Positions 19,645 through 22,792 of a stretch of DNA of 64,000 nt are shown piece after piece (the stretch's first letter is position 1; each line of letters starts with the position of its first letter). The stretch is from Myxococcota bacterium. GTDB lineage: Bacteria > Myxococcota_A > UBA9160 > UBA4427. The notes beneath the pieces were generated by a model. It saw only the letters and a program-made list of their open reading frames with translations. It did no database searches and was not told the origin of the DNA. The stretch covers positions 1,216,001 through 1,280,000 of the forward strand of contig OZ252299.1 of NCBI GenBank assembly GCA_965250285.1, written 5' to 3'. The position numbers and the translations under genes were made by a program.

Positions 19645-19948
19645 GCGAACGGGACGCCCGAGCCGGGTTGGGGGGCCGGCTCGGGCGACCTGCTGCGCCC
19701 GGGGCGTTGGGCCGGGCGCTCGCGTTCCGGTGCAGTTCGAGGGAACCCCACGGTGCCCGGCTCGGTCCAACGTCTGGGCGGATCGCGCGCGCGAGGGTGC
19801 GCCGGCCGCCCGGATGCCCGCCTACACGGGCTGTGCGAAAGTCGGGGGCCATTCCTCGCCACTCCTGCTGCTCGGCCGCCGGTGGGCGGTACCGGGCCCG
19901 AATCAGGCCGGCACCGTGCCGGTATGGACGACCCGCCGGAAGAATTCG

Positions 19949-22792
19949 ATGCGCCCCCGACCGACCGCAAAGCTCCTGCTCGCGTGCCTGCCGATGCTCA
20001 TCGCCGGTGCCGCTGGTGCGGATCCCTGGGTGAACCCGGGTGGACCGACCGAGGCCATCTGCGACGTATCGCACGTGGCCGAAGATCAGTCCGGCCAGTC
20101 GGCGGTCGACTTCGTCTTCGACGGCGTGCCGTTCACCGCGGCCAACCTGACGAACGTCGACTTCAAGGGCGCCTCGCTGATCTGCATCCCCGAGACCAAC
20201 GGCTGGTCGTGCGACGGCCGCTGCGTCGACTTCTCGGCGGCCCTGCTCGACGGCGCCCAGTTCCAGCGGGCCGATGCGACGGGGGCGAGCTTCGTCGGCA
20301 GCGACGCCCCGAACGCCGCGTTCTCGGGTGCGACGCTCGTCGACGCTCAGTTTCTGGGGGCCAAGCTCCGCGGCACGAGCTGGGACGGCGCCAACGCGTC
20401 GGGTGCCCGCTTCGACCAGGCCGACCTCACGGATGCGCGCGCGCTCGAGGGCGACGCGACCGACTTCTCGGGGGCGAGTCTCCAGGGGGCCACGCTGCTG
20501 CGCATCGACTTCGGCGGGAGCAACACGACGCAGCGCGTCTCGTTCACCGGCGCCGACTTGAGCCGCAGTACGAGCGACTGCCGCTACACCGAAGTCAGCG
20601 GGTCGGACGGGACGACCACCGAGGTCAGTGACTGCCCCGACTTCAGCTTTGCCGACTTCACGGGCGCCGATCTGCGCAGCGCCGTATGGCGCGGGGCCGA
20701 CCTGGGTGGTGCCGACTTCAGCGGGGCCTCGACCCGGTTCGACAACGCCCGCTTCGACGACGTCGATCTGACCAGCGAAGGGAGTGCAGGCGCCGATTTC
20801 ACCGGCGCCGTGCTGACGAACATGGCCCTGCGCGAGGCCATCTTCATCGATCAGAGCGACTTCGACATGATGGTGCGCAGCGCGACATTCGCCGGCGCGA
20901 GCCTGGCCCGGGCCGATCTGTCGGACGGTCAGCTGTGCTTCCCGTTCACGTTCGACGAAGACGAAGAAGATCCGGCCGCAGACGATGCGGCGGACATGGA
21001 CGACGCCGATTCGGTCGCCGATGCCGACGAGCCCATCCGCTGCGATGAAGCGCCCTATACCGACGTCGTGTGTGTCGACTGGGTCGACACCGCAGGGGGC
21101 GGGGCCGCGTCGATCGCCGACCGCTCGCTGGCGCAGTCGACGCTCGTGGGCGTCTGGGCGCCCGGGATCGACTTCACGCAGTTCACGCTGAGCGGCGCCG
21201 ACCTGCGCCTGATCGAGATGCCCTGCGCGACCCTCGAGGGCGCCGACCTGACCGACACGTTGATCGACGGCGCGAACTTCGCCGGCGCCTCGTTCGTGCT
21301 CGCGGCCGGGGGGGGCGGCGCCGATCTGCCCGCCGATCTGAGTCGCGCGGCGGGCGCATGCATCTTTCCGCCGGCCGAAGGCGACACTCAGCCCGACCCG
21401 CTGTGCCCGCGCTTCGACGAGGCCCTGCTCGAAGGCGTGTCGTTCACGTCGGGCATCATCGACGGGGGCACCTTCGTGGGCGCCCAGCTCGCGGGCGCCG
21501 ACTTCTCGAGCCTGCGGAACCTGTGTCAGCAGCTGCCGGTCGACCCAGACCAGAACGAGGGGCTGACCACGCGGACGTTTTGCAACGACTACACCGGCGC
21601 CGATCTTGGTCCCGATTCATCGGGCACCCCCGCGCGGTTCACCGGCGCTTCGATGGTCGGGCCGATCTTCGATTCGGCGACGGCCGATCAGCTCGTGCTG
21701 AACGAGATGCAGACCGACTGCATCGCCGGGCAGCTCCCCGGTGACGAAGAGGGCACCGTCGTCAGTCACGTCTTCTGCGCGAGCTTCTTCGACACGACGA
21801 TCACGCGGGCCGACTTCAGCGATGCTTCGCTCTTCCAGGCGCGCTTCGGCTGCCTCGACGAGAGCGGCGACGGGCCGCCCGTGTGGGCGTGCAGCGACGT
21901 GCGCGGCAGTGTCTTCGAGCGCGCCGAGCTCTCGGGCTCGCAGTGGGTCGGACCGGTCGACCTGACGAACTTCGATGCGGGCACACCCACCGACCTGGCG
22001 AACGCCCGCCTCGACCAGGCACTCATCACGTGCCAGGGCACGACCTACACCATGACCGTCGACGATGAGGACGTCGTGATGGCCGAAGCCCGTTGCCCGC
22101 AGTTCGCCGGCGCGGTCATGACGCCGGGCCTCGACCTCTCGGATGCGAGCGTGCTCGGCATCGATTGGTCGAACCAGGATCTGACAGGGGCCGATCTCTC
22201 CGGCGCGACGCTCGGCTGCTTCGTCTACACCTACGAAGACGCCGCCGGCGAGTCGCAGTCCCTCGACCCGATCTGCACCGAGCTCGCTGGTGCGACGCTC
22301 GTCGACGTCGACCTCACAGACGTCGAGATCGACGCCGACATCTCGCTTGCGGGGCTCGCGCTCTCGGGCGCCGATCTCACGCGCGCCGATCTGCGCGGGA
22401 TCGACCTATCGGGCGCCGATCTGAGCGGCAGCAACCTCGAGGATGCGCTGATGGACGCGGATACCCGGTTCAATGCCGGCTACGAGCCCGATCCCGATGC
22501 CAGCGCCGAGCAGAAGAAAGAAGACTGTACCCTCGAGGCGGGCGAGATCGCGACCGACGTTCGCGGTGCCCACCTGGGTGGCGTGAACTTCACGCCGGTC
22601 GTCGACTTCGGCGGCGAGTGCATCCTGTACGACGTGTACACGACGTACACGGCACAGACGCAGGGCCTCACCGAGACCGAGCGGCGTGGGATGACGCTGG
22701 TGCCCGAGCCGGGCGCGCTCGTCTCTCAGCTGGCCGCGCTGCTGACCCTCGGGCTCATCGCTCGCCGCGGCCACGTGAGCCGCCGAGGCTGA
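19949..22792 (+). CDS. Secreted pentapeptide-repeat protein with C-terminal PEP-CTERM sorting signal (947 aa)
   Basis: Signal peptide MRPRPTAKLLLACLPMLIAGAAGA; many A(D/N)(L/F)xx repeats; ends VPEPGALVSQLAALLTLGLIARRGHVSRRG. Confidence 0.88.
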   Translation: MRPRPTAKLLLACLPMLIAGAAGADPWVNPGGPTEAICDVSHVAEDQSGQSAVDFVFDGVPFTAANLTNVDFKGASLICIPETNGWSCDGRCVDFSAALLDGAQFQRADATGASFVGSDAPNAAFSGATLVDAQFLGAKLRGTSWDGANASGARFDQADLTDARALEGDATDFSGASLQGATLLRIDFGGSNTTQRVSFTGADLSRSTSDCRYTEVSGSDGTTTEVSDCPDFSFADFTGADLRSAVWRGADLGGADFSGASTRFDNARFDDVDLTSEGSAGADFTGAVLTNMALREAIFIDQSDFDMMVRSATFAGASLARADLSDGQLCFPFTFDEDEEDPAADDAADMDDADSVADADEPIRCDEAPYTDVVCVDWVDTAGGGAASIADRSLAQSTLVGVWAPGIDFTQFTLSGADLRLIEMPCATLEGADLTDTLIDGANFAGASFVLAAGGGGADLPADLSRAAGACIFPPAEGDTQPDPLCPRFDEALLEGVSFTSGIIDGGTFVGAQLAGADFSSLRNLCQQLPVDPDQNEGLTTRTFCNDYTGADLGPDSSGTPARFTGASMVGPIFDSATADQLVLNEMQTDCIAGQLPGDEEGTVVSHVFCASFFDTTITRADFSDASLFQARFGCLDESGDGPPVWACSDVRGSVFERAELSGSQWVGPVDLTNFDAGTPTDLANARLDQALITCQGTTYTMTVDDEDVVMAEARCPQFAGAVMTPGLDLSDASVLGIDWSNQDLTGADLSGATLGCFVYTYEDAAGESQSLDPICTELAGATLVDVDLTDVEIDADISLAGLALSGADLTRADLRGIDLSGADLSGSNLEDALMDADTRFNAGYEPDPDASAEQKKEDCTLEAGEIATDVRGAHLGGVNFTPVVDFGGECILYDVYTTYTAQTQGLTETERRGMTLVPEPGALVSQLAALLTLGLIARRGHVSRRG

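Follow-up and report, generated by a model that had tools for sequence, protein, structure and literature searches.

A lineage-restricted pentapeptide-repeat protein with cysteine-bracketed acidic loops and a divergent PEP-CTERM-like tail

The gene at positions 19949–22792 (forward strand) of the window, the whole 64,000-nucleotide stretch analysed here, encodes a 947-residue protein of a single-copy, undescribed family that is confined to one family of uncultured bacteria and combines known parts. In this protein a predicted pentapeptide-repeat beta-helix is interrupted by nine acidic loops, each probably closed by its own cysteine pair, and ends in a divergent PEP-CTERM-like tail. The initial annotation had read pentapeptide-repeat runs and 24 mature cysteines from the DNA. 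Both were borne out by the ORF translation, which gave a Pfam Pentapeptide (PF00805) match of 160 bits (cut-off 20.2) and 25 cysteines in total (2.6% of the protein), 24 in the mature part and one in the signal region; every loop sequence quoted at that time is present in the protein. The features are as follows.

19949–22792, forward: complete gene for the 947-aa protein; lies downstream of leuA and has no second copy in the genome
19949–20020, forward: likely Sec signal peptide, residues 1–24 (judged by eye: basic first residues, a hydrophobic core and AGA at the end)
20021–20131, forward: N-terminal cap, residues 25–61, with C38; the His-rich first-coil motif of the family is present here in degenerate form
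20078–22513, forward: pentapeptide-repeat beta-helix, modelled with ~110 faces, or ~28 coils
20183–20224, forward: loop 1, C79–C92, with inner C88 (probable partner C38); corner A; low model confidence
20579–20635, forward: loop 2, C211–C229, predicted beta-hairpin; corner A
20936–21073, forward: loop 3, C330–C375, net −17, predicted disordered; corner B
21224–21226, forward: C426, in the helix wall at corner B, probable partner of C365 (inside loop 3)
21359–21406, forward: loop 4, C471–C486, Pro-rich; corner A
21524–21583, forward: loop 5, C526–C545, a hairpin stem tipped by the conserved motif DPDxN(D/E)G, a candidate Ca site; corner A
21719–21778, forward: loop 6, C591–C610, predicted beta-hairpin; corner A
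21851–21892, forward: loop 7, C635–C648; corner B
22031–22096, forward: loop 8, C695–C716, long predicted beta-hairpin; corner B
22217–22276, forward: loop 9, C757–C776, predicted hairpin; corner B
22514–22699, forward: C-terminal cap with pair C860–C891; family-diagnostic segment, used as profile A5
22700–22789, forward: PEP-CTERM-like tail of divergent type, with VPEP, a hydrophobic helix and a basic cluster

Comparison with contigs of a close relative covered 34 listed coding differences, with 19 further rows outside the list. Of the 34, 30 fell at third codon positions, and the same listed differences gave 27 synonymous against 5 non-synonymous codons, which indicates a genuine gene maintained by purifying selection. 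Its neighbours are carB, recG, leuA, a TPP enzyme gene, a permease-like gene, an aminotransferase gene and hom/thrC-like genes (all but the leuA and TPP enzyme assignments come from reading the sequences). As these are housekeeping rather than EPS genes, genomic context gives no function, and a functional operon was rejected; no transporter or metal gene was found among the neighbours. Upstream of the gene lies a 14-bp motif that is common to a same-genus genome and unique in this one, while an Rfam search of the upstream region returned no credible match (one weak miRNA match, 25.8 versus 84 bits). Among five listed runs there was no RNA run carrying the sequence, a result that is neutral as to expression. 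Paralogues had been suggested as worth seeking, and phmmer over the genome's 41,598 ORFs returned only the gene itself.

Within each pair the two cysteines fall at the same position of the repeat, i+2, which makes every loop an insertion at a helix corner. A leucine or phenylalanine stands seven residues before the first cysteine in 8/9 modules, and F, L or Y three residues after the second in 8/10. The resulting C-loop-C-x-x-F module occurs far above chance: within a set of 262 proteins, mostly generic pentapeptide-repeat matches, 14 had three or more modules (two of these being the query itself) and 230 had none. Thirteen of the 14 module-rich proteins carried a PEP tail; plain, Cys-poor pentapeptide PEP proteins also exist, 16 of them with no module. 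Among five close sequences, 22/24 mature cysteines were invariant, in agreement with the conserved Cys pairs flanking acidic loops that had been proposed, and the remaining two, 330 and 375, were lost together in homologue P0006; the mature cysteine count was even in 19/24 family members. Register, hairpin symmetry, co-loss and parity bear indirectly on the assigned pairing of twelve putative Cys pairs, nine of which would close internal loops, with the adjacency needed for disulfides predicted. Against disulfides, conserved adjacent Cys pairs in an unrelated solenoid family are reported not to form them (PMC13123833).

An AlphaFold2 model (pLDDT 83.3, pTM 0.74) predicts the quadrilateral beta-helix anticipated in the initial annotation, with ~28 coils and period-5 bridges, and its best structural match was HetL (3DU1; Z 25.8, rmsd 2.2 Å over 222 residues). 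The segment from residue 440 to 800 is predicted well. Both marks of the Rfr fold are present: four repeats per coil in the predicted model, and at least eight tandem pentapeptide repeats (PF00805 160 bits, ~110 faces). Five of the nine loops are modelled as beta-hairpins whose base holds the two cysteines; modelled strands within loops 2, 5, 6 and 8 are symmetric around the Cys pair, and loop 9 is also a hairpin. The long D/E-rich loop picked out earlier is present and acidic, but the 330–375 segment involves two pairs, 330–375 and 365–426, rather than one; it is ~22 aa longer than its counterpart in homologues, and C426 lies at the same modelled corner as the C365-bearing loop.

Face counts between successive loops (20, 17, 15, 8, 8, 5, 8 and 8) assign five loops to one corner and the other four to its neighbour, so all nine are predicted at two adjacent corners flanking one face, as the suggestion of loops on one side of a rod had implied. 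Corners were assigned from DSSP strings with manual choices; in the query, four bridges were taken to be small hairpins and left out, a face of low confidence was added, and the model loops out two canonical repeats (114–123) that, if helical, would shift loop 1 by two corners. In a model of the distant homologue P0098 (pLDDT 80.2), canonical loops fell at one corner in 6/7 cases and at the adjacent corner in 1/7, counted by hand with three faces after short loops added by a sequence rule; a non-canonical pair, 273–283, sat at a third corner. A sequence-only test of loop spacing put 53/61 intervals at 0 or +1 mod 4, with more at +1 than at 0; bulges of five residues confound it. Among close homologues, conservation was highest for the outward-pointing residues of the fenced face (0.47 versus 0.35–0.39), which may reflect no more than the C-P-x-F motif on that face.

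The N terminus has a typical signal-peptide layout in 5/5 close homologues including the query, judged by eye. At the other end, the VPEP, hydrophobic stretch and basic cluster passed a motif/hydropathy/basic filter together with 75 other ORFs, and the same tail was seen in 14/14 family proteins shown. The PEP-CTERM assignment made earlier therefore holds for the layout but not for the curated models: profile searches of the protein with TIGR02595 and PF07589 gave no match to the tail, the query was absent from the genome's 75 TIGR02595 matches at E ≤ 1 (150 of 156 candidates scored), and the tail matched only weakly, and only to tails of other PEP families. We take it to be a divergent, slightly longer PEP-CTERM-like variant. 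A check for exosortases was rewarded with six exosortase-family genes in the genome (PF09721 above cut-off), two of the six also passing TIGR02602. A MYXO-CTERM search gave no match in the genome, nor in the controls.

Acidity is concentrated in the loops, with D+E making up 27% of loop residues and 16% of scaffold residues. D, E, G and P abound in the loops and basic residues are few, and 137/158 Cys-bounded segments across the family (a count that includes some cap pairs and redundant sequences) were net negative, with 3/158 positive. Classic DxDxDG-type motifs were sporadic, in 5/15 proteins. An acidic composition with few basic residues is found in most PEP-tailed proteins that the genome encodes, so the acidity of the loops is partly generic.

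The loops had been called variable, and they do differ from one another, but across close homologues the loop at each position is kept almost as well as the scaffold (42% for loops versus 48% for scaffold). Hypervariability among orthologues was not found: in the 15-member 90% cluster of P0098, variable sites numbered 4/96 in loops and 30/824 in scaffold (p=0.77). An antibody- or VLR-like receptor with diversified loops was rejected, given this absence of within-species hypervariability and of any paralogue or cassette repertoire. Loop turnover was seen only between genera, where loop sets are wholly different, protein length ranges from ~500 to 1,800 aa with new loops on the same caps and grammar, and the only features in common are the caps and the Cys grammar. 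The syntenic gene is ~25–33% identical between genera while its neighbours keep ~50–85%.

The family was found in 14/193 genomes of the order, all 14 within the one bacterial family, in which 14/68 genomes searched carry the gene with one match each. A His-rich N-terminal motif occurs in 20/24 members and is degenerate in this protein. A metagenome contig scan gave 123 pattern matches and no confirmed member, and a GTDB contig scan gave one locus among 28 stretches. The earlier impression that no protein of this architecture had been described agrees with the literature searched, in which we found no description.

We tentatively favour, as the leading but still uncertain reading, an exosortase-sorted rigid rod whose loops, on one side, would use Ca2+/Mg2+ bridges to attach the cell surface to a substratum or to polyanionic exopolysaccharide. 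Judging from its sequence, the protein would be exported by Sec and its signal peptide cleaved. Disulfides would then form outside the cytoplasm, each bridging the corner where the chain exits and re-enters the helix (adjacency predicted) and keeping the register while a loop of 10–45 residues protrudes. Loops every two coils at two neighbouring corners are predicted to fence one face into an acidic groove along a rod of ~13 nm, a length estimated from the model's secondary structure and a background value for the rise per coil. By analogy with the PEP-CTERM pathway, an exosortase would cut at the PEP motif and deliver the protein to the surface or matrix, where carboxylate-rich loops may capture divalent cations and through them link to surfaces or matrix polymers, the loop set being refitted by each genus. 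Characterised PEP-CTERM proteins are described as stabilising cell–EPS contact (PMC12188702).

The replacement of loop sets in a single-copy, syntenic gene that diverges further than its neighbours would also suit a specific recognition receptor for kin, prey or a partner protein, in which the fenced face binds one macromolecule and loop replacement between genera shifts specificity; Qnr loop excursions, which are reported to guide partner binding (PMC8145042), and the conservation of the fenced face fit this reading. We nevertheless consider it unlikely, since the species cluster lacks the excess of loop substitutions that a polymorphic kin receptor would need, the loops are D/E/G/P-rich with few basic residues, and the face conservation may come from the C-P-x-F motif alone. 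A related and wider idea, which we hold to be rather doubtful, is a modular display scaffold: a fixed grammar for disulfide-closed loops along one edge, with genus-specific sets recognizing lineage-specific partners (kin, prey or matrix). If true, it would be a natural version of engineered loop-bearing RFR solenoids and a first case of a pentapeptide-repeat protein serving recognition on the surface of bacteria, in a myxobacteria-related, uncultured host family.

A purely structural rod along the outer-membrane/LPS layer, with loops and disulfides serving mainly stability or protease resistance, has a precedent in Caulobacter YjbI, described as a secreted surface pentapeptide protein with two conserved Cys pairs (PMC12864828), and length variation with caps kept is what a spacer might show. 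It seems unlikely, as presence in only 14 of the 68 genomes implies that the gene is dispensable and the 16 Cys-poor PEP proteins without the module imply that a rod does not need loops. Strong negative charge, loops every two coils on one side and the His-rich first coil of most members would serve a metal scavenger or mineral template binding cations for uptake, detoxification or nucleation; that we find decidedly unlikely, given the absence of a transporter or metal gene nearby, the degenerate His motif here and differences between genera in loop spacing and sequence that a lattice match would not tolerate. Lyase and tailspike beta-helices use loop-fenced grooves, and tailspikes, AlgE4 and lyases are among the structural matches of the model (Z 13–16). 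A polysaccharide-modifying enzyme with such a groove is highly improbable, however, because these matches lie well below those to pentapeptide proteins (Z 17–26), their 4–11% identity is the level of a common repeat shape, and, with only caps and Cys grammar common across genera, no constant catalytic set is seen.

To our knowledge, function has been assigned to only a minority of pentapeptide-repeat proteins, and likewise of PEP-CTERM proteins. The present family unites pentapeptide repeats and a PEP-type tail under a clear structural rule, with both cysteines at i+2 and loops at a single corner or at two that adjoin; should the rule be confirmed, it would show a beta-solenoid taking many long inserts without losing register. 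For protein design the family offers more than 100 natural loop examples, and for the uncultured group a lineage-restricted marker and candidate adhesion or matrix protein. Textbook mechanism is unchanged by the finding, and the function given above is a proposal.

HetL (3DU1), Rfr23 (2O6W) and Rfr32 (2G0Y) have the quadrilateral beta-helix in common with our model. As described in PMC8145042, two loop insertions project from one corner of HetL, Rfr23 has a 24-residue insertion and a C39–C42 disulfide bracket, and Rfr32 combines a signal peptide with a cap stabilised by a disulfide; three Ca ions are reported along one face of 2G0Y (PMC12864828). These cyanobacterial proteins have 5–10 coils, whereas ours has ~28, with nine inserts, each with its own Cys pair in fixed register, and a PEP-type tail; the NCBIfam HetL model scored it 112.5 against a cut-off of 260. 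YjbI is described with two Cys pairs that flank the helix ends and a charged, membrane-penetrating C-terminal tail (PMC12864828), whereas here the 24 mature cysteines, in twelve probable pairs, lie mostly around internal loops and the tail is of the PEP-hydrophobic-basic type. The fungal surface adhesin BAD-1, an analogy only, also has repeated disulfide-closed loops, but these are described as near-identical tandem loops with a Trp motif, with no mention of a pentapeptide helix (PMC3708853).

PEP-CTERM/exosortase cargo (TIGR02595, PF07589; PMC1569441) resembles the protein in its PEP-hydrophobic-basic tail, few basic residues and exosortases in the genome, and probably in having a signal peptide. 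It differs in that typical cargo contains 0.4% Cys, against 2.6% here, and in that this tail is longer and was missed by the curated models. Fold and loop excursions are alike in the gyrase-protecting Qnr/MfpA proteins. Those proteins are cytoplasmic and of ~200 aa, and their models (lengths 183–221) scored 32–51 bits against cut-offs of 240–500; a Qnr-type resistance gene or PipB/SopA-type effector was rejected, the HMM matches falling far short of their cut-offs and reflecting the common repeat. Synthetic RFR beta-solenoid loop variants ranked 2–5 structurally (Z 22–25) and were the top PDB sequence matches. A design study of RFR solenoids is said to have made single loop extensions on the same fold by computation. 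These variants (4YFO, 5DQA, 5DNS and 5DN0) are designed and carry loop or beta-hairpin extensions, whereas the protein described here is natural, multi-loop and Cys-bracketed.

The open reading frame translates to a protein with 25 cysteines, 24 of them past the signal region, in which every loop quoted in the initial annotation was found.

Window 19949–22792, + strand: whole gene, 947 residues, by ORF translation
Residues C860–C891: putative cysteine pair of the cap

The database gene call starts 45 codons further upstream (992 aa); since four close homologues all begin at the matching Met, translation probably starts at 19949. In a marine metagenome run, contigs from a close relative differ from the gene mostly at silent sites: in the 34 coding differences counted from those listed (19 more rows lie outside the count), 27 codons are synonymous and 5 non-synonymous. 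The gene is real. Two genomes of the genus, that of L027 among them, have a 14-base motif in common upstream of the gene (window 19829–19842); it occurs once in the window's genome and is possibly a regulator site.

Three Pfam pentapeptide models scored over cut-off, in line with the initial reading, but the tail matched neither curated PEP-CTERM model (PF07589, TIGR02595). Identity with HetL, Qnr, MfpA or PipB was rejected, as NCBIfam scores were all far under cut-offs; these matches reflect the common repeat. The tail passes a PEP–hydrophobic–basic filter, with 75 other ORFs of the genome, and is a little longer than the common PEP-CTERM form. In this longer variant (window 22700–22789), a mark of the family that TIGR02595 missed here, the first basic residue lies 19–21 positions past PEP, often with Gln at +8; it was also noted in further large ORFs of this genome that end in a PEP tail. 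Exosortase-family genes, which it had been proposed to look for, number six in the genome; a dedicated enzyme for the longer tail may be among them, and the protein is presumably exosortase-processed.

Numbering each pentapeptide from its inward L/F (position i), we found L/F seven residues ahead of the first cysteine in 8/9 modules of the window protein and F/L/Y three residues past the second in 8/10. This spacing places both cysteines in the same slot, i+2, at what would be the turn joining two faces, with the loop as a predicted insert at a helix corner. The module is not general among pentapeptide proteins: of 262 compared, 230 lack it, and 16 PEP-tailed pentapeptide proteins have none. 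At least three modules occur in 14 of the 262, a number that counts the query twice; 13 of these 14 have a PEP tail. The C-loop-C pattern is conserved, 22 of 24 cysteines being invariant in five close homologues (44–48% identity to the query). Loss of C330 together with C375 in one close homologue, where C365 and C426 are kept, suggests pairs 330–375 and 365–426, and 19/24 family members have an even number of mature cysteines. We infer twelve pairs: nine loop staples, 38–88, 365–426 and the cap pair.

An AlphaFold2 model of residues 25–917, from six sequences, gave a mean pLDDT of 83.3 and a pTM of 0.74. The closest solved structure was HetL (Z 25.8, rmsd 2.2, 222 aligned), with synthetic loop-bearing RFR solenoids at Z 22–25 and tailspikes and lyases lower (Z 13–16). 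Modelled strands are symmetric around the two cysteines of loops 211–229, 526–545, 591–610 and 695–716, and loop 757–776 is a hairpin too; the acidic loop 330–375 has low confidence, and C426 lies at the same corner as the C365-bearing loop. Successive loops are separated by 20, 17, 15, 8, 8, 5, 8 and 8 faces, in a count that omits four bridges, taken to be small hairpins lacking Cys, and includes one added low-confidence face. As had been suspected, the loops are predicted to lie on one side, five leaving one corner and four the next and enclosing a single face; repeats 114–123 are looped out in the model and, if helical, would shift the first loop's place. In the distant homologue P0098, folded as an independent test (pLDDT 80.2, pTM 0.62), a hand count, with three faces following short loops added by a sequence rule, assigned six of the seven canonical loops to a single corner and the seventh to a neighbouring one; the non-canonical pair 273–283 is at a third. 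The ~110 faces of the window-protein model make ~28 coils and, at a beta-helix rise of 4.8 Å per coil, would give a rod near 13 nm long. The first coil in 20/24 family members holds a His-rich motif, H-x-x-[HE]-x-H, which is degenerate in the window protein (window 20021–20131) and whose His residues in the P0098 model occupy normally inward positions; a metal-held N-terminal cap is possible.

The loops differ from one another, as first described, but not in the way 'variable' implied: pairwise identity between close homologues is 42% in loops against 48% in scaffold, loop lengths are nearly fixed, and the 15-member P0098 cluster, in which one sequence supplies most differences, has no loop excess of variable sites (4/96 versus 30/824, p=0.77). 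Paralogues, also sought in the genome, were not found. Because close homologues conserve the loops and there is no second copy, an antibody-like or antigenic-variation system is ruled out.

Among 193 genomes of the order, a profile of the C-terminal cap gave a single match in each of 14, which all belong to the window's own family (14/68 genomes, 7 genera); among 401 genomes sampled from the phylum it had no match outside that family. Of its 107 matches in the protein database, 30 contain the cap motif; every one of these ends in a PEP tail, and at least one module occurs in all 21 that are 500 aa or longer. Members are named 'pentapeptide repeat-containing protein' from Myxococcales, Myxococcota or Deltaproteobacteria bacteria; the same-genus genome of L027 is labelled Spirochaetaceae, and one of the two taxon labels is probably wrong. 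leuA precedes the gene in the window and in 7/12 other loci compared, whereas the five loci of one genus have it elsewhere; in that genus it lies behind a same-orientation ORF of >2,000 aa (L064:13309–19500, L065:1215–8306) that is 44% identical between two genomes. Between genera, identity is ~25–33% for the gene versus ~50–85% for leuA, a permease-like gene and an aminotransferase; lengths run from ~500 to 1,800 aa and loop sets are replaced, while caps, Cys grammar and negative charge are kept. Other genomes of the family encode pentapeptide PEP-CTERM proteins that are short (240–300 aa) and poor in Cys (L013, L016, L017, L043, L046, L047); these may be plain relatives ancestral to the looped form. 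The proteins at L036 (G013:C108) and L037 (G032:C124) have a different secreted pentapeptide-repeat architecture that lacks a PEP tail and combines an N-terminal domain, Ala-rich coiled segments and scattered inserts that contain Cys.

The best-supported reading is that the protein would be exported as a rod, its disulfides holding helix register across each insert and its acidic loops fencing one face; D+E content is 27% in loops and 16% in scaffold. Against the disulfides, conserved Cys pairs of another solenoid family are reported, in the part of PMC13123833 available, not to be oxidised. Among possible roles a cation-bridged matrix or adhesion function ranks likeliest, if tentatively, because the PEP-CTERM proteins that have been characterised attach cells to exopolysaccharide (PMC12188702, in part) and a solved pentapeptide protein reportedly binds Ca along one face (PMC12864828, in part). 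However, canonical Ca motifs are sporadic, acidity is common among the genome's PEP proteins, and the gene lies outside any EPS locus. That the protein is a specific receptor seems unlikely, and slightly more doubtful is an envelope strut like YjbI, a surface pentapeptide protein described with two Cys pairs in PMC12864828; a metal or mineral binder is less probable again, and an enzyme very improbable.

The window protein is a genuine feature built from known parts, with a role that is a candidate only. Pentapeptide repeats and PEP tails are a common combination in databases; a full-text literature search returned no paper joining the repeat with PEP-CTERM or exosortase. The earlier impression that no such architecture had been described agrees with a broader search of main texts, mostly outside subscription journals, which found none. 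What we did not find described there is a Cys-loop-Cys insert that recurs, locked in register, down one side of a long helix. According to the available part of PMC8145042, corner loops are a known part of HetL architecture, Rfr23 has a disulfide bracket and insertion, and Qnr has functional loops. HetL has ten coils (same source), whereas ~28 are predicted here, and Cys content is 2.6% compared with 0.4% in typical PEP-CTERM cargo (PMC1569441, in part).
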